A DNA stretch of 30,768 nucleotides. Origin: a virus. Lineage: Duplodnaviria; Caudoviricetes. The notes below the pieces were generated by a model. That model had not been told where the DNA came from, ran no database searches, and saw only the letters and a list, made by a program, of their open reading frames with translations. The stretch lies in the IMG/VR virus record IMGVR_UViG_3300027672_000050, positions 1 through 30,768 of that record, one strand, 5' to 3'. The position numbers were made by a program, and so were the translations under genes. Position 1 is the stretch's first letter. The number at the start of each line of letters is the position of its first letter. Below, piece after piece: positions 1-29,392 of this stretch.

Positions 1-3000
1 AACTGTTCATATGTTAAACCTGGTTTAAGTCTCTTAATAGCCGTCTGAGACGTTACGCCTTTACTTCGTTTACCTGTAGCTTCATAAAAAACTTTCATTA
101 AACTAGAAGGTATTTTTAACCCAGTACCTTTAACAGGTTTATATGCTTGAGCGTCTACAGTTGCTAGCTCAGGAGATACGTTTTCTGGTGGTAGTAATTT
201 AAACAAATCAGTACCCATAGATTTTATAACATCTTGGATTTTACTAGACTCTGATTTTATAACCATACCAACTTTAGCGTCAGGATAGTATTTCTTAATC
301 TTGTTTATATTGCTATCGTCAACGATTACATCTTTGTAAGTTAAATTGTCAGCAGGATCAGTTACTTTTAAAACAGGTATATCAAATATCTCAGCTGTTA
401 CTTCAGTTGCTAAGTCTTTTAAATTACCAAAAGTAGATTTATCTATGCTAACTTCACCAGATTCAACTATGTTTTTTATAGCTTCTCTGTACTTGTTTTT
501 TGATTCTTGATTTCTTACTAGTTCAATAGGTTTTATCTTCCTAGAAGTCTTGTCAGTAGCCACTTCTGTTGTTGTAGAAGTGTCAGCAACAGCTTCTCTT
601 ACTGAGCCAGCAGTTCCAGCTTCAGCATCTAAACTTTTATCAGCTATTTTTTTAAACTTCTCATAAGTTTGTTGAGCTTTAGGGGCAATATTATTATATA
701 CCCAAGTTGAAAATTTTGCTTCACTAGGATTGTAAGATTTTAGTATAGTAGGGAAAAAACTTCTTAAATAATCTCTTACTTCTGTCCTATCATAATCTCC
801 TTTTCTAGTATCGTATTTTATAGCGTTTAAAGCCATTGTATCAAACGAGTCAACTAGATCAGCCTCTGCAACTGCTTTTTCTTTAGAGCTAGTATCTTCT
901 GATTTTATAGTCTCTATTAGATTTTCGTTGTTATATACTTTCTTAGGTTTTGATTCTTTGTCTGAAGTTTCTTTTTTAACTGTAGGTTTTTTAGTTGACT
1001 CAGTTTTGGCTTTGGCTTCGTTTCGTTCAGCTGTTTTTATTTTGTTTTCTAAATTAGATTTAGCAGCATCGAAAGCAAATTCATCGTCAAAATCAAACTC
1101 ATCTAAAGCATCTAGCTCTTCTTTAAGAGCGTCTACTTGTTCTTTATTAGTCTTAGATAAAGATATATCGTTAATAGTACCTATCTCTGAGGACTTTACT
1201 CCTCGCTCAGTTTCTTGGTTTCTAATGGCTTCTATAACACTAGAATCAACTTTATCGTTTTTAAGTATACTATTATTGTATTGCTTTAAAAACTCAAAAA
1301 CATCTTCACCTGATTTAAAACTTATATTTTTATAACCTTGTATTTTAAGTAAATTTATTACAAACTTTTTAAGTTTTGTGAAAACATTTTCATCGTATTT
1401 TATATCCTTGTTAAGTATACCTTCAGAGAAATAAGTTAAAAACTCTGAGTCATGATCTTCAGTTTTTACATTTGCATCTAGTTGTGATTGAACCCAATTT
1501 AATTGAGATGAGTTTAATTTTTCTTTAAATTCTTTAACTATTCTAGATTGATTTTGTATATCTCCAAGAACAGCATTTAGCACAGGGTGCAACACCTCGT
1601 GGTTAGACACTGATACAGAACCTTGTTTAAGCGCTACTGTTTTATCCACGAATATTTTACCCGCTCCGATAAAAGCACCGTTAGATCCTCTAGCCTCAAT
1701 AGCGGCATCTTCTAAAGACATGTTTGTATTTTCAGAAATAGCTTTTATATAATCCTCAGTGCTATTAAATACTTGAGGACCTTTTTTAAATCCTAATTTT
1801 TTTGCTAAATCAGAAGCCGCTTTATTTCTTCTCTCAAACATTCTTTCGTTAGAGTTCCTGAATAAGTCTTTATTAACTTTTTTTATTTGTTTTAATTTTT
1901 GCTCCGCTAAGTTCTTTACAATTTCTTTTGTTTTTGGATTCTTAATCTTAGCGTTTAAGCTGTTTATTTCTAGTTTATTCTTAGCGTAGGCTTTAACTTC
2001 TTCAGAAGTCATGTTTTTTAAAGCATTACTATTCTGAGACTTAATATCAACTACTTTAGATATTTCTTCTTTTATAGCCTCGTCTATTAGTTTTGAACTT
2101 TCAACATCTGCTGTTTTTTTACTCTTATACAGCTCAGAAAGTTCGTTAGATGAATTTATTACAACCTGTTTTATCTCGTCAGGCATTAACACGTATTCAG
2201 CTGCTTTTACAGCGTTTACGTTTCTATTCTTAGCAGCACCAACACTTGTACCAGCGATACCAAAAACAGATCCAACAAGACCTTCTTCCGCTATTGATTT
2301 CCAGTCTTTAGATAAATCAAACTCTCTACTTAATCCAACGCCAGTATAGTTAGGTAGAGCGTCTAATAGCAGCGATGTAGTTTTAGTAGCTGCCTCAGAA
2401 CCAAATTCACTAGCAGTGTTTATACCTAGTTTTTTAATCAAACTTTCAGAACCACCTCTTATTAAATCTTCAGCAGCTTTTCTATTACCTTTATTAGTTA
2501 AAATTCCAGCTCTTTTTAATACACCTCTAGTAGCAATCTCAAAACCAGCTTCAATAGTTCCACTAGCTAAAGCATTAGCAACAAGATTAGCTGTGTTAAT
2601 TGAAGGATCTTTTTCAAACTCTTCGGTGAATTTAGCTCCAGCAGAAGAACCACCTAAAGCAACTAAGCCACCTATCCCTAAAGAAGCAGCAACAACAGAA
2701 GGTAAAGACTCTAGAGCACTACCAACAGCTCTTTCACCTGCTATTAAATAATTGCCTTCTTCTATGTCATCAATAATACTTTCATTTTCGTATTCTCTAA
2801 TACTTGGCTCTAGTTTTTGTATAAAAATTTCAGCAGCTAAACTGTGATTAAAATTCACAGCGCCTCTACTTTGTTTCGCTACTTTCATTAAAGCTTTTTT
2901 CTCCTCTGGAGTACCTTCGTAATCAGAATCAAAAGCGTTCAAACCAGCCTCCATGATAGAAAACTCTACCATATCTACAAAATCTACGCTATTTTTAACA

Positions 3001-3665
3001 AAAGAAGCAAAACCTCTAACAGTTTGAGCGGCATAGCTTTCTATTAAGCTTGGTTGTGTTGTTTCTTTTAATATCTTCTTAGCTTTATTATCTATTTCCT
3101 CTGGTGTTATCTCAAACTCTACTATACCATCAAAACTATATTGTCTTTCTATTTCGTTACTAGCAGCTTCTTGCAGTTTTATCTTTTCACTACTTTCTAG
3201 TTTTTCAAATTCATCACTAGAGAAATCATCTCCAGTAATAATATTTTGATCCATTTTAAATAAGTCATTTTTGTAGCCTTGTAAAACAGCTGCATCTGAT
3301 TTATTAACTTCACCTCCCTGTTCTATGTAATCATTTATTTGCTTTTCAGTTTCTTCTATGCTAGAAACCAATAAATCTCTTTCACTAAACTCTTTTAGTT
3401 CAGGTTCTTGTAACTCCGAAGAAGTATCTTCCAACTCTAAATCCGTATCTTCTGGTTGTACACCTGATATTATTGATGCTCTGCTTGGAGTTGCTACTGG
3501 CACTACATCCGCATCCTTTTCTGCAGCACCATTTTGAAAATCCTGTGTTTCTTCTTCTTGTACTAACTCCGCTTCAGGGTATTGCGTTAGAAAAAAATCA
3601 ATTGATTCTTGTGAGTATTCAGTTACATCAACTATTGTTCCGTCCTCTATTTTGTATTTTGTCAT
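1..3665 (-). CDS. Giant virion/ejection (polyvalent) protein, truncated at the window edge; Gly/Ala-rich membrane-type segment, zincin HExxH domain, sigma-2-like domain
   Basis: Not in the ORF track because no stop is reached. ATG at 3665 (MTKYKIEDGTIVDVTEYSQESIDFF...). The same frame reads HEVLH at 1601-1587, KFSTWVYNNI near 716-687 and ...AIKRLKPGLTYEQ at the edge, about 1221 codons. It lies after the tail and ejection genes, where giant virion-packaged proteins sit in crAss-like phages. Confidence 0.85.
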   Translation of the reverse strand, partial: MTKYKIEDGTIVDVTEYSQESIDFFLTQYPEAELVQEEETQDFQNGAAEKDADVVPVATPSRASIISGVQPEDTDLELEDTSSELQEPELKEFSERDLLVSSIEETEKQINDYIEQGGEVNKSDAAVLQGYKNDLFKMDQNIITGDDFSSDEFEKLESSEKIKLQEAASNEIERQYSFDGIVEFEITPEEIDNKAKKILKETTQPSLIESYAAQTVRGFASFVKNSVDFVDMVEFSIMEAGLNAFDSDYEGTPEEKKALMKVAKQSRGAVNFNHSLAAEIFIQKLEPSIREYENESIIDDIEEGNYLIAGERAVGSALESLPSVVAASLGIGGLVALGGSSAGAKFTEEFEKDPSINTANLVANALASGTIEAGFEIATRGVLKRAGILTNKGNRKAAEDLIRGGSESLIKKLGINTASEFGSEAATKTTSLLLDALPNYTGVGLSREFDLSKDWKSIAEEGLVGSVFGIAGTSVGAAKNRNVNAVKAAEYVLMPDEIKQVVINSSNELSELYKSKKTADVESSKLIDEAIKEEISKVVDIKSQNSNALKNMTSEEVKAYAKNKLEINSLNAKIKNPKTKEIVKNLAEQKLKQIKKVNKDLFRNSNERMFERRNKAASDLAKKLGFKKGPQVFNSTEDYIKAISENTNMSLEDAAIEARGSNGAFIGAGKIFVDKTVALKQGSVSVSNHEVLHPVLNAVLGDIQNQSRIVKEFKEKLNSSQLNWVQSQLDANVKTEDHDSEFLTYFSEGILNKDIKYDENVFTKLKKFVINLLKIQGYKNISFKSGEDVFEFLKQYNNSILKNDKVDSSVIEAIRNQETERGVKSSEIGTINDISLSKTNKEQVDALKEELDALDEFDFDDEFAFDAAKSNLENKIKTAERNEAKAKTESTKKPTVKKETSDKESKPKKVYNNENLIETIKSEDTSSKEKAVAEADLVDSFDTMALNAIKYDTRKGDYDRTEVRDYLRSFFPTILKSYNPSEAKFSTWVYNNIAPKAQQTYEKFKKIADKSLDAEAGTAGSVREAVADTSTTTEVATDKTSRKIKPIELVRNQESKNKYREAIKNIVESGEVSIDKSTFGNLKDLATEVTAEIFDIPVLKVTDPADNLTYKDVIVDDSNINKIKKYYPDAKVGMVIKSESSKIQDVIKSMGTDLFKLLPPENVSPELATVDAQAYKPVKGTGLKIPSSLMKVFYEATGKRSKGVTSQTAIKRLKPGLTYEQ

Positions 3666-14674: not shown

Positions 14675-15505
14675 TTAATTCATGTTTTTCTCTATTGATC
14701 TAAAAACTTCTACACCTTCATCTGTCTTAAAATAAGAAGCCATAGCTGAATAAGGGTTTTCGTCAAAAGGTACTGTCATAAGTTTTCTACCATTTGATCC
14801 CCAGTTAAACGTTCTTTGGTCTTGAGATAGAACTATAATACCTAATTCAGAAGCTGTAATAGCTACGTTTCTAAGTTGTACATTTTCATCATTAGCTAAT
14901 TCTAAGAATAAAGATGGATTGTTTCTAGCAAACAATAATAAATCTCTTCTAAGCTCTTTAGAACTCATGCTAGATACCTTAGAACCTAACTCAACTCTTA
15001 ATATAGCTTCGCATTGATCTACATCCATTTCACGAGCAGCATTTAAAGCATCTATTTGAAGATCTAAAACATCTAATTCGTCTTCAGCTTTTTCAACCGC
15101 GCTAAACTCTTCGTATAACTTATTTTTAAGTGGGTGATAAAGAGATAATAGTTTTTGTAAATTTTGTTTTTGTTTTGGAACAGTTAAAACACCGTCCATG
15201 AACCTAATGTGACCCATTGTGCATTCTCCTTTTTGTTCATCTACTAGTGGAGAAGATTGGTTTGTAGCATATCTTATCTCTCTTTGTTTTCCAGACTTTT
15301 CATCAAAATACAATAAAGCATGTTTTCTAGTGTGTCTTCCTGGTATTGTAAGAGTTAAAGGGCTTTTATCTCCTTTTAGATAGTATATTCTATCTTTTAT
15401 TTCCCATTCAGGTTTAATTTCTTTTTTAATTGAAGTTGTTGTAACAACTTTTTCTTCTTGAGGAGCAACCTCAACTTTTTTTGCTGGAGCTTTTTTAGTA
15501 GCCAT
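14675..15505 (-). CDS. Conserved virion-module protein downstream of the major capsid gene (276 aa)
   Basis: Lys/Glu-rich disordered N-terminus, then REIRYATNQSSPLVDEQ and SSKELRRDLLLFARNNPSLF. Function unknown. Confidence 0.6.
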   Translation of the reverse strand: MATKKAPAKKVEVAPQEEKVVTTTSIKKEIKPEWEIKDRIYYLKGDKSPLTLTIPGRHTRKHALLYFDEKSGKQREIRYATNQSSPLVDEQKGECTMGHIRFMDGVLTVPKQKQNLQKLLSLYHPLKNKLYEEFSAVEKAEDELDVLDLQIDALNAAREMDVDQCEAILRVELGSKVSSMSSKELRRDLLLFARNNPSLFLELANDENVQLRNVAITASELGIIVLSQDQRTFNWGSNGRKLMTVPFDENPYSAMASYFKTDEGVEVFRSIEKNMN

Positions 15506-15527
15506 AATATGATATAATTTAATAATT
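15503..15527 (-). promoter_or_regulatory. Duplicated 25-nt leader, copy 1 (AATTATTAAATTATATCATATTATG)
   Basis: 24/25 identical to 18343-18367; both copies end at the ATG of a head-module gene. Confidence 0.5.
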
Positions 15528-15646: not shown

Positions 15647-17107
15647 TTAGATTCCTTTGAATAATACAAAGTTGTTAGCAGCTTGAGTTACTAAACATCT
15701 TTCTGATAAGAAGTTAACTTGCATTGCATCTAAATCAGAAGTTGCAGCACCACCAGCAGAACCAGTTAACCAAGATTTCATTCTTCTATCATCTGATTGA
15801 GAAGCTCTATATCTTACATGTAAGAAAGGTCTTCTGATGTTAGTTCCTAAAATTTGATCATAAACAGTAGAAGTTCCAGCAGGTATTAATACACCTTCAA
15901 TAGAACTGATACCATCGATTCCACCACGAGTAGAAGCATCGTTTAAGTATTTCCAGTCAGTTTTGTAGAAGTCATAAGAACCTCTTCTGAATCCAGAGAA
16001 ACCTAAGTTAAGAGCCATTTCTTCAGAGTTTTCGAATAAACCAAAAGCAGTACCACCAGCGAATCCACCAGAGATAGCAGCTAGCATATCGTCAAAATCA
16101 AGAGATGTTTGTCTCTGTAAGAATAACATGTTCTCTTCAATAGCTCCTTGAGTATCTAAGTTTTTCAAGATGGCATCAAATTCGTCAAGACCAGCAGCAG
16201 CAGTAAATCCTACTTCTACGTTTCCACGAGCTTGAATAGCAGAGAATAAACCTTGAGTACCAGGTAATCCAGCTGAAGCGTTAACACCTGCTGCAATTTG
16301 GTTATACTCACCTTCTACCATACTCATTTCTAAGTAGTCTTCAAAACGTAATCTTGTTTCAGATTCAGCTTTTAAGTACCATAGGTATCCAGATGTTCCG
16401 TCTTCAGTTGCAACTTCTACCCATCCAATTTGAGCCATATCAGATCCAGAAACTTGGTACTGACTTCTGATGATCACAGGAGAGTTAGAGAATTGAGTTA
16501 ATTGAGGCTCTACACTAATACGAGCAGCTGAGTTACCAGCGCCTGCACCTAAGCTACTTCCTTTTGTGTAAGCAGAACCATATACAAATACTTTTAAACT
16601 TGGTATTACACCAACAGCAGTAGCTCCAGCTACAAATCCAGCAACTAAACCAGCACCATTAAAAGGAGCAACAGTAAAGTTACCTCCAGCACCAGCAGTA
16701 GTAGCTGTTACGATTGCTTTTACTTCAACACCAGTTGTAGGGTTTAAAAGAACTACAGTATCATTTATAGAAACAACGTTATTAACGTTAGCCGCTACAG
16801 TAATTACGTTAGTTGTACCAACGTTAGCTCCAATACCAATTCCTTGGTAAGAGATATGTAATCTGTTTTGCTCAGACCAAATTACTTGATCAGAAGTCAT
16901 TGGCATTTCAGCACCAACCATTTTTAAGAATCCAGATAACGTTCTGTTTCCATAACGCTCTACTTCTTGTTCGTAAATTTCAGGTAAATATTGTTGCGCG
17001 AAAGTTGCACCACCTGCACCAGCTGCGTTAAACTGTAAATAGTTTGTAGCTAGTAATTGTTGTGTTTGAGATGGTACTAAACCACCAAACTGAGGAGTTA
17101 AACTCAT
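15647..17107 (-). CDS. Major capsid protein (486 aa)
   Basis: Follows portal and scaffold genes and precedes a stem-loop pair. Motifs QQYLPEIYEQEVERYGNRT, SDQVIWSEQNRLH, GYLWYLKAESETRLRFEDYLEMSM and NLGFSGFRRGSYDFYK match the capsid family of marine Bacteroidota phages. Confidence 0.85.
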   Translation of the reverse strand: MSLTPQFGGLVPSQTQQLLATNYLQFNAAGAGGATFAQQYLPEIYEQEVERYGNRTLSGFLKMVGAEMPMTSDQVIWSEQNRLHISYQGIGIGANVGTTNVITVAANVNNVVSINDTVVLLNPTTGVEVKAIVTATTAGAGGNFTVAPFNGAGLVAGFVAGATAVGVIPSLKVFVYGSAYTKGSSLGAGAGNSAARISVEPQLTQFSNSPVIIRSQYQVSGSDMAQIGWVEVATEDGTSGYLWYLKAESETRLRFEDYLEMSMVEGEYNQIAAGVNASAGLPGTQGLFSAIQARGNVEVGFTAAAGLDEFDAILKNLDTQGAIEENMLFLQRQTSLDFDDMLAAISGGFAGGTAFGLFENSEEMALNLGFSGFRRGSYDFYKTDWKYLNDASTRGGIDGISSIEGVLIPAGTSTVYDQILGTNIRRPFLHVRYRASQSDDRRMKSWLTGSAGGAATSDLDAMQVNFLSERCLVTQAANNFVLFKGI

Positions 17108-17121
17108 AATTTTTGTTTTTT

Positions 17122-18345
17122 TTAGTTAAACTTTTTTGTTTTTATTCTTAATTTTGAAGAATCAAGACCGCTAATAGATTTAACTTTTAAACCATTTACA
17201 AATTCACTACCGTTTACCGCAGTTCTCGGTGTGTCTGTAATGTTCTTAGATTTGTTGACAACGTCTCGAACCGCGTCAGCTTTTCCTTGTTCATAAAAAT
17301 GATTTACAATACTATCTGCATTAGCAGCAATATAAAGAGCTTTGTGATAACCTTTTGTATCTGTTACATCACCTTTGTCGTTAAGGAACTTCCCTACGAA
17401 ATTATTAATGTTAGATTGGTCTTCTGCAACTTTACTAGGATTTTGAACTCCATACCTAAACTTTTTACCACTAACATCGAAATCAAAACCTTTGAAATCG
17501 TTAGCAAAATAGTCTTTAGTTTGAGACGTGAAATCTTCGTGCTGTTTAGCAACTTTATTTTGATCTTCTTTGTATCGGTTGAAAAAGTCAGTAGCTTTTT
17601 GTTGGTCTTGAGTTACGCCTGGTCTCAACTTGATCTCGTCGTAATATTTACTCTTTGTTTCCTCTAAAAAGTTTTTAGCTTTCTCAACTTCTTCTTTAAA
17701 CGCAATTTTTTTCTTGCGTATATCTTTGTCATCATCTAGATCTTCGTCATATTCATAGTCTTCTAGTACTACGTCTATGTCTTGTGAATCTAGATATGGT
17801 TTTGTTTTTTTATAATATTCTTTAAGTAAAGAAGTTTCATCTATAGCAGAGTAGTCAGCATTTAATCTAACATAGTCTTCTACAGTACCTCCAGTATCTT
17901 CCATGAAGTTAACAAGTTTTTCGATGTTTTCAGGTAGCTTTTTACCTAAAACTTTTTCATCTCTTAAAGCTTCTTTTACTTCTTTAGTAACTTCTTTAAC
18001 TTCTTCGGTTTCTTCTTCTGTTATTTCTTGCAGCTGCGTGAACTCGGGAGTATCATTTGAAGAGGTGACTTCGTTTCCTGATCCCACTTCTTGCAATCCC
18101 ACTTTGGGCTGTTCTGTGCGTAGCACGCTTTCCTCTGAGCTTTCGTTTTGAATGGCATTTTCTTCTTCTTGTTTTGGAATAACTACTTTAGTTACAGTAT
18201 CAGGCGCATCTATTAAAGGCTCCTTAATATTAACTTTAGTAATTTCTTGATCTTTTTTAGCTAATTGCTTAGGTTTCTTTGCCTTACCTTTAAGACTAAA
18301 TTCACCTTCCTGCTTAGCAGGTTCATTTGTTTTTACTTCTGACAT
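17122..18345 (-). CDS. Putative capsid scaffolding protein (407 aa)
   Basis: Acidic, Glu/Lys-rich and largely helical or disordered, located between the portal and capsid genes. Confidence 0.7.
   Translation of the reverse strand: MSEVKTNEPAKQEGEFSLKGKAKKPKQLAKKDQEITKVNIKEPLIDAPDTVTKVVIPKQEEENAIQNESSEESVLRTEQPKVGLQEVGSGNEVTSSNDTPEFTQLQEITEEETEEVKEVTKEVKEALRDEKVLGKKLPENIEKLVNFMEDTGGTVEDYVRLNADYSAIDETSLLKEYYKKTKPYLDSQDIDVVLEDYEYDEDLDDDKDIRKKKIAFKEEVEKAKNFLEETKSKYYDEIKLRPGVTQDQQKATDFFNRYKEDQNKVAKQHEDFTSQTKDYFANDFKGFDFDVSGKKFRYGVQNPSKVAEDQSNINNFVGKFLNDKGDVTDTKGYHKALYIAANADSIVNHFYEQGKADAVRDVVNKSKNITDTPRTAVNGSEFVNGLKVKSISGLDSSKLRIKTKKFN
18021..18158 (-). CDS. Overprinted 45-aa basic protein in the +1 frame of the scaffold gene (MPFKTKAQRKACYAQNSPKWDCKKWDQETKSPLQMILPSSRSCKK)
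   Basis: ATG at 18158 after an A-rich leader (CAAGAAGAAGAAA-ATG), TAA at 18023-18021. Hand count gives 65/138 G+C (47%) versus 25-30% in nearby 60-nt blocks. Shares the M-P-F-K start and KSPL motif with free-standing small genes in this window. Confidence 0.6.
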   Translation of the reverse strand: MPFKTKAQRKACYAQNSPKWDCKKWDQETKSPLQMILPSSRSCKK

Positions 18346-18367
18346 AATATGATATAATTAAATAATT
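18343..18367 (-). promoter_or_regulatory. Duplicated 25-nt leader, copy 2 (AATTATTTAATTATATCATATTATG)
   Basis: 24/25 identical to 15503-15527. Confidence 0.5.
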
Positions 18368-18377
18368 AAGTACAGCT

Positions 18378-20783
18378 TTATCTAGGGCCAAAACCTTCTA
18401 AACCAAAACCACCTAAAACGTCATTACCTGAAGATTCAAAATTCTGAGGTAATCCTTCTGTTTGTCTTTGATTTATTAATTCTGATTGCTGTGTTCCCTG
18501 TAGTTTTATTCTTTGATCTTTCCTATCTTCTATCTCTTGCTCTCTTTGATTTTGTGTATTCATTTGAGCTTGAGCTAATTGTATGTTATAATTAAACTCT
18601 TCAGCCATAAGCTCTCTTTTTAGTTGAACTTCAGTTTGCATTCTCTGTATTTCAAACTGAGACTTAGCTTGTTCTAAATTAACTTTTTCAGAAGTAAGAG
18701 CTTGTTGTTTTTGAACCTCAAACATAGCAGCTTTTTCAGCAGCCTCAGAATTTGCTTGAGCTTGTGCTTGTATATTTTGCTGTTGTTGTTGTTGCTCTCT
18801 TTTTATTTTTTGAGTTTGTCTAAGTTTTAAAAACTGATTAGCTACTTTAATATTTCTTATTTGTCTAATGTCAATAGCATCTGACAAAGCTATAGCACCT
18901 GTTTGTAAAGCCATTTGAATATTCTGCTCTAGTAAAGCTTTTTCTTCTTCTTCAGGTTCTAATTGTAAAAAGATACCAAAGTCATGAAGCTGTAAATCCA
19001 TAAACTCTTCTAATGTTTTAGTATTAAACGTACTTATAGAATTTATTAACGAGTTTTCAGTTAAAGGGTTTTTTATTAAATCAGCAACTTTAAGACTTAT
19101 GTTTTCACACACTCTTAAAGTAACAAACAATAAAGAATCTAATAGATGTTTTGTAGCTGTATTAGAAGCGTTTGCTGCTAATTTCTGAACTCCAACTAAA
19201 GCATCTTTATCTGGTTGGCTACCATCTCTAGCTTCGTTTAATCCAGTTACGTCTCTTATCATTTGTAGGTAATATTGATATGTACCTATTAAACTTTGTA
19301 TTTTAGCTTGACCAGAAGATGTTGATAATTCTTGTATAGGCACTTTTCCAGCATTTAAACCACCTTCTTGATTAAGTGATCTACCTACTATAGAACCAGT
19401 TTGAAAATACATATTAAGAGCTTCTGCTGGATTATAATTCGTACCGTTACCTAAATCAACTTCAGCTAAACCATCCATGTCTAAGAATACACCATCAGGA
19501 ACTATTCTAGACATAACTTGTTGCAGTTTTAAATGAGTTAGTTGAATCATGTCAGCAAAACCAGTTATCTTACTAACAACAGACTCTATACGTCCTTTAT
19601 ACATCTTAGGTGCACTAATACAGTAGTTCATTTCTACTTTAGTAGTATCAGCGTTTGGCCTAGTCATGTTTTCAGCCATTTTCCACTCTAGCATTAGATT
19701 AGTACCTAACACCTTGGCGCCAGTGTATAATACTTCTATACTTCTAGAAACTCTTTCAAAATTATCATTTTCTGGAGGGTTAAAAGAATCTGTTTTTTCT
19801 AAAGCTTTTTCTAAGCCTTGTTCTGTTCTTTTAATTTTAAAAACTTGGTTCATATAAGTTTTATACTCAAAGTACATTACTTGAACCGTGTTTTCATCGT
19901 AATTACCCCAACCTGTAACGTATTGAGAATTACCTGGAGTTTTTTGTATTCTTTCTAACTCTTCGTTTGAAAGGTTTGGAAACTGCTTTTTTAATTCAGG
20001 TATTGTTACAGCTTTTACTTCTCCTACATAATATATGTCTTCAAAGTTTGGATCTTCTGTATAAGAGTAAACCATATAAGCTGGATCAACGTAGTCTATA
20101 ACTATACCTTGTGATTTATCAAAACTAGTTTTAGTAGCTCCTATACCTATAACAGTTAAGTCTTGAGCTATTCTTTTCTTTGTTTCATCAAATTTATTAC
20201 CTGCTAAAACGTTATTTATAACTTCTTCCTCAGCTACTTCTACGTTTTGCTTATAAGTCATTTGCATGTGTAGATCAAGCTCTTCATCGCTTTCAGGTAG
20301 ATCTTCCATATTTTGAGTTCTAGAAAAATCCATACCTAAGTTTTCTTGTAAATTAACAAGAGCTTTTTTGGTATTCATATCCTGCTCTATAGCTTGTGCA
20401 TAATCTGTTCTGTTTTTTACAGAAAAAGGATCTTGAGCATAAGCTGTTATATCATATGATTTATTAGACAATCCGTTAGCAACTATGTCTACAAACTTAG
20501 ATATAATAGGAACAGGTGTCCAGTCTAAGTTTAAGTATGATAAATCACCATTGATAGATAATTCATTTTTATATTTTTGAACACTTTGCTCTCCTCTAGC
20601 ATATAATCTTAATTGATGAAAATTACTATAATACTTAGCATATCTGTTTCCGGATCTTCCTCCTTGAAACCACTCTTGCTCTATGGCTCTACCCACTTGT
20701 ATACCGTAATCTAGACTTGCTTTTTCTTCATCGCTAACTACTTGACTAGGGAATGAACTATAAGTATTAGTTTGTATCTTCAT
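18378..20783 (-). CDS. Portal protein (801 aa)
   Basis: Directly after terL. Motifs LRLYARGEQS, SYLNLDWTPVPIISKFVD and MIRDVTGLNEARDGS, with a long Gln-rich C-terminal coiled coil like a P22-type barrel. Confidence 0.85.
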   Translation of the reverse strand: MKIQTNTYSSFPSQVVSDEEKASLDYGIQVGRAIEQEWFQGGRSGNRYAKYYSNFHQLRLYARGEQSVQKYKNELSINGDLSYLNLDWTPVPIISKFVDIVANGLSNKSYDITAYAQDPFSVKNRTDYAQAIEQDMNTKKALVNLQENLGMDFSRTQNMEDLPESDEELDLHMQMTYKQNVEVAEEEVINNVLAGNKFDETKKRIAQDLTVIGIGATKTSFDKSQGIVIDYVDPAYMVYSYTEDPNFEDIYYVGEVKAVTIPELKKQFPNLSNEELERIQKTPGNSQYVTGWGNYDENTVQVMYFEYKTYMNQVFKIKRTEQGLEKALEKTDSFNPPENDNFERVSRSIEVLYTGAKVLGTNLMLEWKMAENMTRPNADTTKVEMNYCISAPKMYKGRIESVVSKITGFADMIQLTHLKLQQVMSRIVPDGVFLDMDGLAEVDLGNGTNYNPAEALNMYFQTGSIVGRSLNQEGGLNAGKVPIQELSTSSGQAKIQSLIGTYQYYLQMIRDVTGLNEARDGSQPDKDALVGVQKLAANASNTATKHLLDSLLFVTLRVCENISLKVADLIKNPLTENSLINSISTFNTKTLEEFMDLQLHDFGIFLQLEPEEEEKALLEQNIQMALQTGAIALSDAIDIRQIRNIKVANQFLKLRQTQKIKREQQQQQQNIQAQAQANSEAAEKAAMFEVQKQQALTSEKVNLEQAKSQFEIQRMQTEVQLKRELMAEEFNYNIQLAQAQMNTQNQREQEIEDRKDQRIKLQGTQQSELINQRQTEGLPQNFESSGNDVLGGFGLEGFGPR

Positions 20784-22994
20784 TTATTTAATCATTTTTG
20801 ATGACGCGCCTGTGTTGTCATATTTTTTTATACCTAAGTTTATACTTTTATATTCTTTTTTAGCTGTTGGTGTGTATCTATTCTTGTTACATGCCATTAA
20901 AGCTAAACCAGAACTTATGGAAGCATCATGTTTTGTTCTGTTATTTATATTAAATTTAGCCCAATCTTCTAAGGTTCTTTGAAAGTACATGTCTCCATAA
21001 CCTCCTTCAGTTTTACCAATGTTTGTATCTACGTATGTTTCTATAGCGGAAGCGTGAGCTTGTTTTATGTCTTCACTAGAGTTAGGTATTCCACCTATTT
21101 CTTTTTCAGTTACTGATAATTTGTTCCAAACCTTATCTGGTCTATTCATAGAATAACCTCTATAACCTCTTCTTCTGAAATAATATAATAATCTAGGCTT
21201 GTTGTTTTCACAAAGTAAAGGCATACCGTAAAATATACATGCCATTAATACATCTTCAAAAAACATCTCAGCTGTTTGTGGTCTAGCAATATATTCTAAA
21301 AAGAAATGATTGGGAGGTACGTCCTCCATACTAAATTTTGTTAAACCGTGTAAAGCTCCATTAGAACCTCTACCATCAACTGTACCTGATATATCATAAC
21401 TATCACAACCAAACGCTCCACAGTGATCATTACCTGGATACTTGGTATTACCTTTAATTATTACACGATTCTGAAGATTTATAGGTGGAACCCAAGTTAT
21501 ATTAAATCTACCGTCTTTATTAGGCATAAATAAAACCTTAGAATCTTTAACACCATTCTCCCATTGAAAACTACCTTTAGTTACTACAGAGGTGTTTCTT
21601 AAGTCTTCATTGTAATCTATTTGCTCGTATATTTTTGTAAGATTAAAAAGCGATTGCTTTGTTTCATCTCTAAAAGCGTGCTGCTCTGTTCTTGGGAATT
21701 GACGATAGTATTCGTTTAAACCATCTTGATCGTTTTTTAAACCATCTACTTCGTTTTGCCAATACTCTATTACTCCTTGATCTATTGGATCACCCTGTGG
21801 TCCTTTTACTTCTTTACCCGGAGTGTTGAATACAGGAAATCCATAAGAATCAATGTATCCTTCGTAGTTCCATTCCATAGGTATGAACAAACTATAGAGT
21901 CCTGAACGAGTCTGTCCATTGGCATTTCTTTCGTTAATATTTGAATCATAGTATAATTTTTTAAAATTTTCACCACCCTTATCTAGAGCGTTTGATGTTG
22001 AGCCCATCATACATTTACCTATAATCCTAGAACCTAGTCTTAAACAAGTTTTAGTTACCCTCCAGTTGTTTAATATATTTGTAGGTCTTTCCCACTTTCC
22101 ACTCTCATCATGTACTAGTAGTTTTAATTTTTCCCCGTCATACGAGTTGTCTCCTGTGTTTTTCCAGTCGATCGTCGTGTCGAGCCCCGATATTTCTTGT
22201 AGCTTTTCGTTGGTATCAAGTTTCTTTCGTGTAAACTTCGACGCTGGTACTCTATAAGCGAGTTCTGTTTTTGGCCTGTCCATACCGTCTTGTATCGGTT
22301 TGAAAAAGAAAGGGTAGTTGATCGATATTGGTACAACTTTGTCCGTAAACATTTTTTTCGCATCAGGCCCAGATTTTGATAATATACCAAATCTAGAGTC
22401 TGTTGATATTGTTGCCTGGTTAACTGTTTCTCCAGATGCCATAAACGAGAATCCAGAACGTCTGTTTTTAAGGTAACACATACCGTATGATCTGACGTCT
22501 GCTTTACAAGCTTCCCAGAATAAGTAGAATAATCTGTTTGACTCCCTAAAATCTGGCTGCCCAACATCAATCTTGGACCACTGCAAGTACATGTAGTTAG
22601 TACCAGTAATATAAGTAGAAATGTCTTTATTATTAAACCACATTCCTTCATCTCTTCTTTTAAACTCTGTATCGATATAGTCATACCATTCTTCTTTAAA
22701 GTTCGTAGGGTAATCATCCCAATCAAAAACAGATTTTATTTTTTTTAGCTCTTTAGGGTATTGAGTATGCTGCCACTTGTTTGATTCAAAAGAAACAACA
22801 TTCTCTTGTTTCGGTAGAGCTATATTTAAACCTTGTATATTGTAAATTTCACCTATTTGACCAGTCTTACTTATAACAACAACGTCGTGCTCTTTGTTAT
22901 AACCATACTCCCATTTCTTGTATTTGTTTAATCTATTTACAATTTTGGGTTTTATGTGGTCTTTTAAAACGCTATATAGAGTTTGCTCGTACAT
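20784..22994 (-). CDS. terL: Terminase large subunit (736 aa)
   Basis: Walker A-like YLKNRRSGFS, Walker B LLVHDESGKW, coupling motif MGSTSN, RNase H-like nuclease motifs FGCDSYD and KHDASISSGLAL. Confidence 0.92.
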   Translation of the reverse strand: MYEQTLYSVLKDHIKPKIVNRLNKYKKWEYGYNKEHDVVVISKTGQIGEIYNIQGLNIALPKQENVVSFESNKWQHTQYPKELKKIKSVFDWDDYPTNFKEEWYDYIDTEFKRRDEGMWFNNKDISTYITGTNYMYLQWSKIDVGQPDFRESNRLFYLFWEACKADVRSYGMCYLKNRRSGFSFMASGETVNQATISTDSRFGILSKSGPDAKKMFTDKVVPISINYPFFFKPIQDGMDRPKTELAYRVPASKFTRKKLDTNEKLQEISGLDTTIDWKNTGDNSYDGEKLKLLVHDESGKWERPTNILNNWRVTKTCLRLGSRIIGKCMMGSTSNALDKGGENFKKLYYDSNINERNANGQTRSGLYSLFIPMEWNYEGYIDSYGFPVFNTPGKEVKGPQGDPIDQGVIEYWQNEVDGLKNDQDGLNEYYRQFPRTEQHAFRDETKQSLFNLTKIYEQIDYNEDLRNTSVVTKGSFQWENGVKDSKVLFMPNKDGRFNITWVPPINLQNRVIIKGNTKYPGNDHCGAFGCDSYDISGTVDGRGSNGALHGLTKFSMEDVPPNHFFLEYIARPQTAEMFFEDVLMACIFYGMPLLCENNKPRLLYYFRRRGYRGYSMNRPDKVWNKLSVTEKEIGGIPNSSEDIKQAHASAIETYVDTNIGKTEGGYGDMYFQRTLEDWAKFNINNRTKHDASISSGLALMACNKNRYTPTAKKEYKSINLGIKKYDNTGASSKMIK
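22124..22651 (-). CDS. Candidate overprinted membrane-anchored or lipoprotein-like protein in the +1 frame of terL (175 aa from ATG 22651; frame open from 22726)
   Basis: About 200 stop-free codons, while other minus-strand alternative-frame ORFs in the track are 70 aa or shorter. terL synonymous codons avoid +1 stops across this span. N-terminus MKECGLIIKTFLLILLVLTTCTCSG. Confidence 0.45.
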   Translation of the reverse strand: MKECGLIIKTFLLILLVLTTCTCSGPRLMLGSQILGSQTDYSTYSGKLVKQTSDHTVCVTLKTDVLDSRLWHLEKQLTRQQYQQTLDLVYYQNLGLMRKKCLRTKLYQYRSTTLSFSNRYKTVWTGQKQNSLIEYQRRSLHERNLIPTKSYKKYRGSTRRSTGKTQETTRMTGKN

Positions 22995-23269
22995 TACTTA
23001 GATCTTCCTTCAGCAAAACCTCTAAAAGACTTTTCTTGTTTAACCTCTTCTTTTTTAGGATCAAGCATTTTCTCCTCTTCTTCGATACGATTAAGAATTT
23101 CAAAAGCATCAAATATAGCCAGTTTCTTAGTAGCTGCAGCATTTTTAAGTTTATCAGCAGATAAATCATCATCAGAATCAACAATAGCTTCCTTAGCTAC
23201 TTTAATTAACTCTTCAACTGCTTTCTGCCCAGCTAGGATTATATTCTTCTTGGTTTCCTTTGTGTTCAT
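22994..23269 (-). CDS. Small helical protein, putative terminase small subunit (91 aa)
   Basis: Coupled to terL by a TAATG stop/start overlap at 22994. Assignment by position only. Confidence 0.5.
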   Translation of the reverse strand: MNTKETKKNIILAGQKAVEELIKVAKEAIVDSDDDLSADKLKNAAATKKLAIFDAFEILNRIEEEEKMLDPKKEEVKQEKSFRGFAEGRSK

Positions 23270-23819
23270 ATTTAATTACAATATCATTAGATTTCATACA
23301 ATAAACTCTTTGCTTGTCTATAATAAAATCCCATTCACTGTTAGGTGTAAAACCTAATACATCTCCTGGGATTATTTTAAGAGCTTCTAAGGACTTATTT
23401 CCGTATTTTAGTATACCAATAAGTTTTTGTTCTTTTTCTAGCTCTAAAGAGTTATTATTCTTTAAAGGCATTACAAAGCATCTGTCTCCAAATGATTTCC
23501 AATTACCTGTATTTTTATACAAATATATTTGATCTATAGCGCAAAAGTATAATCCATCTTCAAAATAAGATCTACTATTTTTTTTAACACCCTTCATATC
23601 ATAGAATACTCTAAAAACATTATGGTGGACTACTACTATATCTCCTTTTTTTATATCTGTTTTAAAAGCTTTAGGAGTTTCAACAACTACAGCCATATTA
23701 TTGACTGATTTAAAGCTTTCTATTTTCGTATTCAAGACTAAGGTCTTATCACCAAGTTTTATTTCATTTTCATATCTATCACCTAATGGCTTAATTATGA
23801 AATCGTATAAACTTTTCAT
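23214..23819 (-). CDS. Tandem GroES-fold (co-chaperonin-like) protein (201 aa)
   Basis: Two GroES-like units: FIIKPLGDRY...AVVVETP...IKKGDIVVVH and FGDRCFVMPL...GILKYG...IIPGDVLGF...RVYCMKSNDIV. Overlaps the next gene by 56 nt. Confidence 0.6.
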   Translation of the reverse strand: MKSLYDFIIKPLGDRYENEIKLGDKTLVLNTKIESFKSVNNMAVVVETPKAFKTDIKKGDIVVVHHNVFRVFYDMKGVKKNSRSYFEDGLYFCAIDQIYLYKNTGNWKSFGDRCFVMPLKNNNSLELEKEQKLIGILKYGNKSLEALKIIPGDVLGFTPNSEWDFIIDKQRVYCMKSNDIVIKYEHKGNQEEYNPSWAESS

Positions 23820-25972: not shown

Positions 25973-26359
25973 TTATTGTTTTTTTGATTTCTCCCAAGTT
26001 CTACCTACAAAGTAAGCACCATACACTGTAATAAGTAATGACTGAAATATTGGTATGTATTCTTTTGTTATCTTAAATTCCCCTACGTTTCCGTCCGTGA
26101 AAACTAACAAGCTAAATATAAATGTTAAAAACACTAAAACTAAAGGTCTAATATTTTTAGCTAACCAGCTATCGGAAGCCATATCTGCTTTCCATCTATC
26201 TGTAACTTGTTGTTGAGCTTCGCTATCTGCTTTTTCTAATATCTCTTGTATTAGTCTTTGCGCTTCTAGTTTTTCTTCTTTAGTTGTAGTAAGCTTATCG
26301 ATAACGTTACCTACTTCTTTGATAACGCCACCTGTTAACCATTGGAATATTTTTTTCAT
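25973..26359 (-). CDS. Holin, GTA-type 3TM family (128 aa)
   Basis: Amphipathic N-terminus, RWKADMASDSWLAKNIRP motif, hydrophobic helices LVLVFLTFIFSLLVF and IFQSLLITVYGAYFVGR, basic C-terminal tail. Confidence 0.75.
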   Translation of the reverse strand: MKKIFQWLTGGVIKEVGNVIDKLTTTKEEKLEAQRLIQEILEKADSEAQQQVTDRWKADMASDSWLAKNIRPLVLVFLTFIFSLLVFTDGNVGEFKITKEYIPIFQSLLITVYGAYFVGRTWEKSKKQ

Positions 26360-26634
26360 TAAATCACTGGTTTACCTGGAGTGTACATGAATGAACCTCC
26401 TCCTTTTCTAACAGTGTATGAACCTAAATTGTTTGCTCTTTTTTCAACTGTAGATTTTGGAAACTTAGCTTTAACTATTTCAAATTGCTCGTCAAAACCT
26501 TTAACTTGAGCTTCTGATTTTGTTATTTTTTTCTTAGGTTTTTTTGGATCTGGATCAACTTGCAATAAAGCTGAATCTAATCCTCTACCGGTTTTAGCCA
26601 TCGGAGATCTTCCTGCTGTTTGTTTGTAAGCCAT
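26359..26634 (-). CDS. Small basic protein (91 aa, MAYKQTAGRSPM...)
   Basis: A-rich leader; TAATG overlap with the holin start. Confidence 0.6.
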   Translation of the reverse strand: MAYKQTAGRSPMAKTGRGLDSALLQVDPDPKKPKKKITKSEAQVKGFDEQFEIVKAKFPKSTVEKRANNLGSYTVRKGGGSFMYTPGKPVI

Positions 26635-26651
26635 TGTTTTATTTATTTTGT

Positions 26652-26960
26652 TTATGATTTTTTGTAAGCCTCAGCTTCCCAAGGTAAGTTTTTAGCGCCT
26701 TCATTCATTTGTGCTCTTGAGTATTTTTTTCCTTTCCAATATACATATTTATCGTCGTAATCTAAATCACCACGTTTCATTTGGTTTATATGTATTTTTT
26801 CGTGCTTTATAACACTTTCTTTTTTTGATGGATCTAAGTCTTTATTAAGTAAGATAGAACCGTTGTTGTTAGCTTTACCTAAAACACCGTCTTCCATATC
26901 TACACTGTAAATAGGAGTGCTATCGTAATTATAAGGTGGTGTGTTTAGTTTGAATGCCAT
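26652..26960 (-). CDS. Minimal zincin-like metallopeptidase (102 aa)
   Basis: VLGKA...GSILLN strands, VIKHEKIHINQ (HExxH) and a downstream LPWEAEAY third-ligand motif. Confidence 0.7.
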   Translation of the reverse strand: MAFKLNTPPYNYDSTPIYSVDMEDGVLGKANNNGSILLNKDLDPSKKESVIKHEKIHINQMKRGDLDYDDKYVYWKGKKYSRAQMNEGAKNLPWEAEAYKKS

Positions 26961-26970
26961 AAATAGTTTT

Positions 26971-27006
26971 AAAAAAAATCCTACGGGTTTTTACGCCCGT
27001 AAGATT
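26971..27006 (-). terminator. Rho-independent terminator
   Basis: Minus strand AATCTTACGGG-CGTAAAAA-CCCGTAGGATT (11 bp with one G-U pair) running into a T8 tract, 11 nt after the stop at 27018. Confidence 0.8.
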
Positions 27007-27017
27007 AATTAGTTTAA

Positions 27018-27383
27018 TTAAGCTGTAAAAGCAGCGCTAGTGAAAGTAACGTTTACTTGAGGCGTTGTAATCACTTGTCTCCCTGAACCAGTTTGTCCTA
27101 AAGGAATTTGCGCAACACTTACAGGTGACCCTACTGTTGATACTACTCCACCTGGATTAGCAGTTATTGCAGCTTGGATAGCGTTTAACACGTCGTTAGC
27201 AACTAAAGGTGCTAAGTGTGTTACTCTCCATTTTTTCGTAGCAGTTAAATTGTTATCAAAAAAGATATCAGTTGTAGTTGTGCTACCTGTTGCAATTCTT
27301 GTAATTTGGTCGATGTTAATCAACAATTCTGAACCTGTTGTTGCTCCTGGAGCAGTTAGGTTAAATTTAATGTACTTTGCCAT
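27018..27383 (-). CDS. Hypothetical protein, possibly an abundant virion protein (121 aa, MAKYIKF...)
   Basis: ATG at 27383 (AAAAATG context) is preferred over 27425, whose extension is only the translated hexamer repeat. The gene has its own terminator. Confidence 0.65.
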   Translation of the reverse strand: MAKYIKFNLTAPGATTGSELLINIDQITRIATGSTTTTDIFFDNNLTATKKWRVTHLAPLVANDVLNAIQAAITANPGGVVSTVGSPVSVAQIPLGQTGSGRQVITTPQVNVTFTSAAFTA

Positions 27384-27387
27384 TTTT

Positions 27388-27418
27388 GTTAGTGTTAGTG
27401 TTAAGTTAGTGTTAGTGT
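27388..27418 (-). repeat. Tandem hexamer repeat (ACTAAC)n in a 5' leader
   Basis: Plus strand gttagt gttagt gtta a gttagt gttagt gt, ending 4 nt before the ATG at 27383. Confidence 0.85.
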
Positions 27419-27462
27419 GTGGCATTTTTGAGTTTTATAACAGATCTCTACTGTTTAATTAT

Positions 27463-27756
27463 TTACATTCTACTCTTAGAGTGCTTAGACATAAAAGAAC
27501 CACCAGCTCGTGAATCAATTGGATTGTCACTTAGTAAGTTTTTCTTTTCTTGTTTATTAGATTCATAACCTTTGTTTTGATTATACAAAGGAGATTTTTT
27601 CATCATAATACCTGATTCTCCAGCTGCTACTTCTAGTTCTTTTTTCTTTTCGTATTTAGCTGCTTTTTTATCCCCGCTTTTATAGTCAGCGATAGCGTTT
27701 CTAGCGTAGTCTTGTTCTACTTTTTGTTTTGATTTTTTTAAAGGTGATTTTTTCAT
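27463..27756 (-). CDS. Lys-rich small protein with two MKKSPL motifs (97 aa)
   Basis: MKKSPLKK at the start and MMKKSPLYN internally; A-rich leader. Confidence 0.6.
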   Translation of the reverse strand: MKKSPLKKSKQKVEQDYARNAIADYKSGDKKAAKYEKKKELEVAAGESGIMMKKSPLYNQNKGYESNKQEKKNLLSDNPIDSRAGGSFMSKHSKSRM

Positions 27757-27779
27757 TTTTATTTATATTTATTTATTAT

Positions 27780-28061
27780 TTAACATTTCCATCTTCTACG
27801 TGCTGCTAATCCTCTTTCACCTTTCCACCCTTTGGATCTAGCACAAAAAGACTTTCTTCTTTTAGCATCTTTACTACCTGGTTTAACATCACCAGTTACA
27901 GCTGTTTTAAGTTTACTACCTGGGTTTTCTTTTTTATATTTTTTAACACCAGCAGCTGTCATACCTGCTCCTTCTTTAGTAGATAAAAAGTTTCTACCTT
28001 TTCCTTTAGTTGTTTTACGAACTCTTAAGAAAGGTGATGAGTCTGGTTGAGTGTAAGGCAT
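27780..28061 (-). CDS. Very basic phage protein, DUF6321-like (93 aa)
   Basis: GMTAAGVKKY...PGSKLKTAV...KRRKSFCARS...ARRRWKC pattern recalled from a widespread phage family; the family name was not checked by search. Confidence 0.6.
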   Translation of the reverse strand: MPYTQPDSSPFLRVRKTTKGKGRNFLSTKEGAGMTAAGVKKYKKENPGSKLKTAVTGDVKPGSKDAKRRKSFCARSKGWKGERGLAARRRWKC

Positions 28062-28682: not shown

Positions 28683-29129
28683 TTATCTATTTTTATCTTT
28701 GTTTACGTAACTTATAGCTTTAGTTAAAACCTTATCTGTGTAAGACTCACCTTTAACTAACTTGTTGCTTCTACCATTCATTGAAATATCTTCTTCGCCT
28801 AGCATTATCTTATACATTTTGTTTATAAGATGCTTGCATTTAAAAGACACTTTGTATATGTGGTATTTTTGAGTTGTATGATTTCTTTTTCTCCAAACAA
28901 CTATCCAACCTTCTTTAAGAAGCCTGTTCCATCTTCTATTATCCCAGCTATAAGAATAAGTACCTTCTATAAAATCGTTTTTAGTAAAATACTCTATGCA
29001 ATCAAAGTAAATTAATAGTTCTAAATCAGAATCATTTAAGTCATTGTTTTTACAAGCCCATTTACGTATTATGCGATAATGTTTTAACAAGTTCATATCT
29101 TTTATATCCCTTGCCTCTAGCCTTCTCAT
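28683..29129 (-). CDS. Putative winged-helix (MarR-like) DNA-binding protein (148 aa)
   Basis: NDLNDSDLELLIYF...FTKNDF...RWNRLLKEGWIVVWR...YHIYKVSFKCKHLI fits a winged-helix pattern. ATGA overlap with groES. Confidence 0.5.
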   Translation of the reverse strand: MRRLEARDIKDMNLLKHYRIIRKWACKNNDLNDSDLELLIYFDCIEYFTKNDFIEGTYSYSWDNRRWNRLLKEGWIVVWRKRNHTTQKYHIYKVSFKCKHLINKMYKIMLGEEDISMNGRSNKLVKGESYTDKVLTKAISYVNKDKNR

Positions 29130-29392
29130 AAAACAACAACTATATCTTGTAACTTTATAACGTGGTAAATATCTTTTTCAAATTCTATTTTATGACCAGC
29201 ATGTCTATCAAAGTATATTTCACTACCTTCTTTCAACCCTGCAGCCTCTGCCTCTTCACCAACCGAAACTACAGTTGCTTTAGTGTACCTAATATCTTCT
29301 CTCTGGTTCTGAGCAAGAAGTAAACCACCCTTTGTCTTGGTGGTCCCTTCTTTTTCTTTGTTTATAATTATATTTCTACCTATCGCTTTCAT
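29126..29392 (-). CDS. groES: Co-chaperonin GroES (88 aa)
   Basis: MKAIGRNIII, mobile loop TKTKGGLLL, ATVVSVG, LKEGSEIYF and YHVIKLQDIVVVL. Confidence 0.9.
   Translation of the reverse strand: MKAIGRNIIINKEKEGTTKTKGGLLLAQNQREDIRYTKATVVSVGEEAEAAGLKEGSEIYFDRHAGHKIEFEKDIYHVIKLQDIVVVL

Follow-up and report, generated by a model that had tools for sequence, protein, structure and literature searches.

A conserved gene nested in a probable phage scaffold gene, with homologues in giant genes and as free-standing copies

On the evidence of its conservation and substitution pattern, the open reading frame (ORF) at 18021-18158 of an Elemovirus-like phage is a conserved, selected protein gene nested within a second gene on the same strand. 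We consider it fairly likely that this gene encodes a basic two-helix peptide, initiated at its own start codon on a late structural message and likely packaged in the head, and that a block of about 110-140 nt encoding it has moved between scaffold genes and giant virion-protein genes.

The window (the whole 30,768-nucleotide stretch of DNA that was analysed) is a 30.8-kb virus record, 49% complete, from an Elemovirus-like Bacteroidota phage (Table 1). Its closest cultured relatives are the Elemoviruses of Flavobacterium, whose proteins are 44-45% identical (capsid) and 39% identical (the gene containing the nested ORF, hereafter the host gene, over its C-terminal part) to those of the window. 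The host gene encodes an acidic protein whose C-terminal part was modelled as long helices. It matched no family in Pfam or PHROG, the C-terminal model matched no fold in the PDB, and the Elemovirus homologue is annotated only as 'structural protein'. Because no family or fold matched, the label 'scaffold' rests on position and make-up; judged by its position, acidity and helical model, the host gene is probably the head scaffold.

Table 1. Features of the window discussed in the text
Feature	Position	Strand	Remarks
Nested 45-aa gene	18021..18158	minus	+1 frame of host gene; net charge +8; two Cys
A-rich, weakly folded leader of nested ATG	18159..18178	minus	A at -3, -6 and -12; C at -13
Host gene, 407 aa, acidic, probable scaffold	17122..18345	minus	Lies between portal and major capsid; helical model
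Variable acidic N-terminal linker of host gene, codons 1-134	17944..18345	minus	Codons 63-108 hold the nested gene
Portal protein	18378..20783	minus	phrog_6547, E 3e-141
Major capsid protein	15647..17107	minus	phrog_13704; 44-48% identical to Elemovirus and MW202828 capsids
Terminase large subunit	20784..22994	minus	phrog_6681
5' part of giant gene at Elemovirus gp18 position	3..3665	minus	25% identity over 291 aa, weak

A 15-nt A/T motif occurs in identical form at 18343-18357 and at 15503-15517 (minus strand), ending at the start codons of the scaffold-position gene and of a 276-aa gene, respectively. The leader of the scaffold-position gene was nearly invariant across 134 relatives, and the motif is a possible late promoter or translational signal. 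By eye, the 447-aa ORF at 29376-30719 and the 88-aa ORF at 29126-29392 resembled a GroEL/GroES pair, and the 201-aa ORF at 23214-23819 matched a GroES model.

Conservation, selection and translation start

The nested ORF runs from ATG to TAA over 45 codons within the 407-aa ORF, and its translation was identical to the peptide quoted in the initial annotation, which had claimed a real gene here. Stops occurred throughout the translation of the plus strand over the same span. G+C content was 47.1% in the nested ORF, 32.6% and 30.4% in the two 138-nt flanks and 32% in the remainder of the host gene. Of the 138-nt segments sampled across the contig, only 0.06% were as G+C-rich as the nested ORF. 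The 47% given by the initial annotation therefore held, and its figure of 25-30% for the neighbourhood was slightly low. The rare host-frame codons that it had noted were borne out by the relative codon index of the host frame, which dropped from 0.67 across the remaining host gene to 0.33 within the overlap. An A-rich leader before the nested ATG and an acidic linker around the gene, both described earlier, were likewise present, and annotation had indeed missed the gene, for example in cultured Elemovirus genomes, where the copies are unannotated.

IMG/VR yielded 594 relatives of the host gene, and we examined the best 80. The start codon and open +1 frame expected of a real gene were retained in 53 of these 80, each of which had a Met-Pro start, an open +1 frame of 37-52 codons and a stop; the nested start in these 53 relatives fell in the host string D/N-A-I/V or close variants. 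The nested ORF was absent from the scaffold-position gene in 26 relatives, and in one (L053) an indel had joined it to the host frame. Open +1 runs of at least 45 codons also occurred in the linkers of 8 of the 26 host genes scored as peptide-less (five with another ATG-led ORF and three without a start). Because such chance runs occur, the length of the open frame counts for little by itself, and the case for the gene rests on conservation and selection.

A different basic +1 ORF of 42-43 codons was observed at linker codons 41-90 in L057, L063, L064, L067 and L070, all scored as peptide-less. Identities for this ORF versus the host frame were 26 vs 21, 27 vs 20 and 26 vs 25, and it is a possible replacement gene or decayed copy.

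Selection was assessed in a set of 134 distinct host genes, 108 of them with the ORF, which had been enriched by later peptide searches. We calculated dN/dS from 30 close pairs that had no member in common and whose peptides were equally long, counting each frame by a simple method. The nested frame had a dN/dS of 0.156 (bootstrap range, 0.11-0.20), equal to that of the host C-terminal domain (0.152), and the host frame within the overlap had a dN/dS of 1.03; +1 pseudo-frame controls gave 0.63 and 1.37. Synonymous variation in the host frame was suppressed in the overlap, as a real nested gene would require, with host pS falling about threefold, to 0.118 from 0.29 and 0.37 outside. The change at third positions dipped at codons 61-100 and nowhere else in the host gene, and the rate of +1 stops per codon was 0.000-0.006 at codons 61-90 versus about 0.1 in the flanks. 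The retained start, frame and stop, together with purifying selection in the nested frame, thus uphold the claim of a real gene. Other +1 ORFs in the C-terminal part of the scaffold, considered as a second nested gene, were rejected as shadows for this lineage (pseudo-frame dN/dS 1.37, third-position change not reduced).

The pattern of changes also bears on whether the ORF might merely reflect a host-frame motif or an RNA or DNA signal, with no protein made. Chance +1 runs of such length in these linkers favour that explanation, as does some constraint on the host frame: a pure shadow control gave a dN/dS of 1.55 against 1.03 in the overlap, which indicates that the host frame retains a little constraint. 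However, changes in the overlap numbered 241, 105 and 108 at the first, second and third host codon positions and were thus concentrated at nested third positions. The copies in giant genes described below behaved in the same way, with a dN/dS over the first 30 codons of 0.10 in the nested frame versus 1.46 in the host frame (11 hand-picked pairs) and changes of 55, 21 and 11 by host codon position. In addition, stops broke the would-be host frame in 36 of 47 free-standing homologues. We therefore regard a signal without a protein as extremely improbable.

In Flavobacterium, A at positions -3, -6, -12 and -13 was reported to be a positive determinant of initiation in the available text of PMC6847099. 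All four positions were A in 56% of 94 distinct leaders versus 5% of 8,771 same-phase linker positions, and three of the four were A in the window. The mean folding energy of the leader region was -1.6 versus -5.2 kcal/mol. The 20 nt upstream of the nested ATG are thus likely a Bacteroidota-type initiation region. Contigs from RNA runs covered the region in 30 of 30 bins for X1, 24 for X2, 9 for X3 and 30 for the unlabelled X7, and were uninformative on transcription level or starts.

These leader features argue against a model in which ribosomes slip from the host frame and so produce a shortened scaffold protein that ends in a basic tail. Frame-joined forms that would fit such a model are known (L053 and the called proteins P0134, P0135, P0176 and P0217), but they are rare, are joined on different sides and resemble single-base indels. 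Moreover, Met1-Pro2 was invariant, and the peptide module was N-terminal in free-standing and fused relatives. Frameshifting is accordingly a very unlikely source of the peptide. In L053:2631-3816 and the four called proteins, the indel joins the peptide to the scaffold on either side; these may be assembly errors or rare variants.

A peptide family and its two-frame block

As a single query, the window peptide matched one called protein, and a profile built from 14 relatives matched 2,856 short and 1,458 longer called proteins, and 3,978 clusters at 50% identity. The stand-alone homologues called for as a check on the nested gene were thus found, and in unrelated phages. Annotated free-standing copies occur in phage 023Pt_psg01 and, as gp48 with a tail rich in Ala and Lys, in Streptomyces phage FlowerPower; a further copy is present in Synechococcus phage S-CBS2. 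The S-CBS2 member (L164:3001-3111; S-CBS2 position 34225 onwards) is unannotated and overlaps the stop of gp045.

The median net charge was +11 to +12 in all three location classes (scaffold-position, long-gene and free-standing), and that of the window peptide was +8. AlphaFold modelled the peptide with moderate confidence (pLDDT 69) as two short helices (residues 6-14 and 22-28) followed by a basic tail. Among the 120 longer relatives listed, 103 began with the module and continued into unrelated domains, and most others carried it after a short extension ending in Met. Fusion partners, scanned in 88 proteins, included three lysozymes, two InPase domains and domains of the SET, AAA kinase, cupin and DnaJ-like types, and most had no Pfam match.

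Known families and folds gave little further information. No Pfam family passed for the peptide members. The PHROG family phrog_1375 (function unknown) matched 8 of 35 nested peptides (best E 4e-5) and two free-standing copies (E 1e-5 to 1e-4), and it did not match the window peptide or the Elemovirus copy. DUF3008 (PF11450), suggested only by an atlas lead of 0.84-0.86, was dismissed after none of 5 records and none of 92 members matched, and PDB sequence hits to designed propellers proved to be chance matches summed over repeats. The peptide model matched no PDB fold and, at an E value of 0.001, no entry in BFVD, where weak rows were uncharacterised viral proteins including one from Harvfovirus (E 0.037). 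A literature search that lacked the primary Elemovirus paper returned no description of the family or its nesting; 'MPFKS' in the available text of the phage paper PMC12919940 belongs to an unrelated C-terminus.

A subtype with a pair of Cys residues was observed in 63 of 100 scaffold, 8 of 29 giant-gene and 0 of 44 free-standing copies. Both Cys residues were kept despite a basic insert of 8-12 residues between them, and they possibly form a disulfide or metal site.

The initial annotation had linked the nested peptide through the motif KSPL to small genes at 26.3-28.1 kb of the window. This resemblance was not homology, as the family profile had no match there. KSPL occurred in 12 of 100 scaffold-nested, 0 of 29 giant-nested and 0 of 44 free-standing peptides, and we rejected it as a family mark because it is present in a minority of scaffold-nested copies only. 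The looser motif S-P-(L/F/M) was seen four times in 713 aa of small genes versus five times in 8,895 aa of large genes (26359-28061 for the small genes); the numbers are small, and it is possibly a common short motif.

The peptide frame is probably older than the linker frame, because free-standing and fused homologues are widespread and the would-be host frame is broken by stops in most free-standing copies, as counted above. The term 'overprinted' used in the initial annotation therefore had the polarity backwards: the peptide frame is far wider in distribution and more constrained than the linker frame. De novo overprinting, for which the available text of Sabath et al. 2012 (PMC3494269) gives confinement to a host-gene subclade and a lack of outside homologues as the criterion, was rejected, since homologues exist in unrelated phages. 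The present pair is similar to such overprinting in having two frames of which one is more constrained; unlike in that case, the nested frame is the widespread one with low dN/dS, and the linker frame is probably derived.

Nested copies differed from free-standing copies at sites where the host frame would be affected. Phe3 was encoded by TTC in 107 of 109 nested copies versus 26 of 47 free-standing copies, a codon choice that avoids a stop in the host frame. At fourfold sites, T before AAx was found at 0 of 383 sites in nested copies versus 92 of 334 in free-standing copies, and GC3 was 0.68 in nested copies versus 0.25 in the host domain. Read in the host frame, the block was 22% Glu and 10% Gln. 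We propose that a Lys-rich gene whose third positions are G or C would yield a stop-free, Glu/Gln-rich string in its -1 frame, and that such a two-frame block could then recombine into any tolerant acidic linker and leave the host protein unbroken. The G+C island and the mobility would both follow from a block that reads harmlessly as an acidic linker.

Copies in giant genes and relocation

Profile scans of IMG/VR placed the peptide in three kinds of location. The first scan, of 80 loci, contained 69 scaffold-position, 8 long-gene and 3 free-standing copies, and the second, of 80 loci overlapping the first, contained 11, 22 and 47, respectively. For these counts, four truncated scaffolds were relabelled manually, and four loci whose short open frames arose by chance were treated as free-standing. 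All nested copies lay in the +1 frame, whatever the host gene. The 30 long hosts, whose open frames ranged from 932 to more than 2,400 aa, resembled the scaffold in the block only and fell into five clusters once the block was masked; among the 20 that were scanned, two matched a DarB-like model, one matched LPD23 and five matched phrog_32588. In GTDB, we obtained 15 hits on metagenome-assembled genome contigs that are likely phage, all nested (seven in scaffold-like and eight in long genes).

Cultured phages contain such copies as well. The window peptide matched 68 of 68 Elemovirus records; in NC_055853, an unannotated 42-codon +1 ORF lies inside the 3,694-aa structural gene gp18, and in MW202828, the peptide lies inside a 3,859-aa gene. 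The Elemoviruses (Flavobacterium phages vB_FspP_elemo) have the same gene order as the window, and their peptide is 74% identical over 31 aa. Unlike in the window, however, it resides in gp18, and their 339-aa scaffold-position gene has no peptide. In the portion of the giant gene present in the window (the 5' part only), we found no copy. The initial annotation had tied the nested gene to the scaffold; this link does not stand, because sister phages have their copy inside a giant gene.

The DNA common to giant-gene and scaffold copies was limited to about -20 to +121 nt. Within it, the best giant/scaffold pairs were identical at 109 of 126, 97 of 107 and 115 of 141 nt (82-91% over 107-141 nt); the protein identities of capsids and scaffolds between the window and Elemoviruses are those given at the outset. 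A search for the peptide in 50 records, of which the 42 single-copy records had been chosen for having a copy, yielded one copy each in 42, and the eight misses were fragments 8-34% complete. A search for the scaffold matched 11 of 37 records, and these 11 all had a giant-gene copy and none had a scaffold copy; they represent one subgroup and are non-independent, and the L254 scaffold may be cut at its 5' end. No peptide was detected elsewhere in 13 fragments (8-62% complete) with a peptide-less scaffold. The peptide may be dispensable, because 26 of 80 relatives had no scaffold copy and none was found elsewhere in these 13 fragments.

On a quick tree of the scaffold group, absence of the peptide required 12 changes (at least 7 forced), and peptide subtypes required 30 changes versus a minimum of 8. 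L062 and L045 were 98% identical over the 3' 700 nt and differed by a block at the nested ORF. In approximately unbiased (AU) tests of a 43-column peptide tree, a single clade was not rejected (p = 0.16 for scaffold copies, 0.06 for giant-gene copies and 0.41 for all nested copies), a result also compatible with one ancient transfer.

Two side observations concern individual loci. The cassettes of L197 and L199 had zero nucleotide differences over codons 2-30 and their host proteins were 61-71% identical, which suggests recent exchange. The 25-codon ORF at L143:1826-1903 opens with 11 residues almost the same as those at the start of the peptide; it lies 675 nt upstream of a full copy in the same giant-gene span and is a possible degenerate duplicate.

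The compatibility of the AU tests with monophyly leaves room for a head-related gene that is real and is not a mobile cassette. In that case, either the two host genes captured free-standing genes separately, or a single ancient transfer took place, after which copies were inherited vertically and some were lost. One free-standing copy (L225:3989-4150) starts about 10 nt past the stop of a giant phrog_32588 gene and is a possible capture intermediate, and phrog_32588 giant genes host nested copies elsewhere. Even so, we judge this history improbable. Each host gene contains at least two subtypes, Cys-pair and non-Cys, and copies match best within their own subtype across hosts, with 78-91% nucleotide identity in the twelve best pairs, whereas scaffold copies that differ in subtype have only about 30-40% of residues in common. 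The absence of the Cys-pair subtype among the 44 free-standing members and the excess of subtype changes on the scaffold tree also speak against it. From these sequence comparisons, relocation between host genes has very probably occurred at least once, and repeated relocation is likely.

Possible function and meaning

For the product, we moderately favour, by analogy with known systems, a role in which one part tags it for packaging into the head and its basic tail binds DNA. The initial annotation had likewise proposed a basic protein internal to the head; the small, basic nature of the predicted product bears this out in part, and the head location is putative. Translation would initiate internally at the A-rich, Bacteroidota-type leader. 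Removal of the initiator Met, which the specificity of the enzyme allows when Pro follows, would leave an N-terminal Pro, and the first 38 or so residues would constitute a portable N-terminal module. Acting much like a capsid-targeting tag, this module would bring the peptide, and in other phages fused cargo such as lysozymes or InPase, into the prohead, and the Lys/Arg-rich tail would bind packaged DNA.

The available text of PMC9026906 describes a T4 N-terminal capsid-targeting sequence on varied basic internal proteins, and in that of PMC5512222, phage InPase domains are considered likely to be packaged in the virion and MuF is said to carry fused effectors. In the present family, as among the T4 internal proteins and MuF fusions, a short module begins proteins of various kinds, many of them basic, and it may work in the same way. 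Unlike the T4 sequence, the module is about 38 aa rather than 10-19 aa and has no sequence match to it; searches of PHROG, Pfam and PDB detected no homology to T4 internal proteins. The peptide also resembles the microvirus J protein, a strongly basic, DNA-binding protein of about 40 aa found inside the capsid, in size and charge. It differs from J in having no family, sequence or fold match with it and in belonging to a tailed dsDNA phage.

Evidence from gene context was mixed. The giant Elemovirus host gene gp18 is annotated as 'structural protein'. A head, connector or tail gene was nearby at 18 of 41 free-standing loci (12 head-type and 6 tail; 133 of 145 neighbours scanned, with no background rate), and the other 23 had no virion gene among the scanned neighbours, some lying beside replication or metabolic genes. 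A loose, self-chosen prohead-protease motif followed the module in 76 of 160 fusions, a count that has no control, and the predicted complex of peptide and capsid (alignments of 92 and 70 rows) scored 0.00, which weighs neither way.

The main rival to head packaging is a role directed at the cell, in which a real, relocatable gene produces a peptide that forms no part of the virion and acts late in infection, for example on ribosomes, on RNA or on the timing of lysis. The 23 free-standing loci without a virion neighbour and the presence of the family in phages with very different heads and hosts point in this direction. Small basic peptides often bind RNA, which also counts for it. On the other side, no ArfA or other host-factor family matched among 35 or 92 members, so that an ArfA-like ribosome rescue peptide was rejected; the nested copies examined sit in scaffold-position or giant genes; and the fused cargo includes lysozymes and InPase. 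A cell-directed role is thus unlikely, though very slightly less so than the non-mobile history considered above.

Nested genes as such are already known, and what is new here is a nested gene that, judged from the sequence comparisons, is apparently mobile between host genes. In phages, E in D and B in A of phiX174, where D is a scaffolding protein, and Rz1 in Rz of lambda are nested out of frame. Like these pairs, the present gene is complete, with its own start and stop, on the same strand inside another gene. Unlike these fixed partners, it also occurs free-standing, fused at the N terminus of other proteins and in non-homologous host genes of sister phages. Nested overlaps make up about 30% of annotated viral overlaps according to the available text of PMC7017920.

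In the usual view, a new frame arises on an old gene and stays there. Here, an old and widespread gene lies inside other genes and appears to switch hosts, with the linker frame as a by-product, which would be a different route to overlapping genes. We tentatively suggest that this old small gene may be a portable two-frame cassette that hops between unrelated head-protein genes and is expressed inside them, and that its product may be an unrecognised N-terminal head-packaging tag that crosses phyla and has thousands of members. The finding also exposes a blind spot of annotation, as the matches in 68 cultured Elemovirus records lie beneath a gene annotated as structural, and because cultured phages carry the peptide, its expression and function are testable at once. 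Should the module prove to be a packaging tag, about 4,000 protein clusters would gain a function, and the entry of lysozymes, kinases and InPase as cargo into diverse phage heads would be explained.
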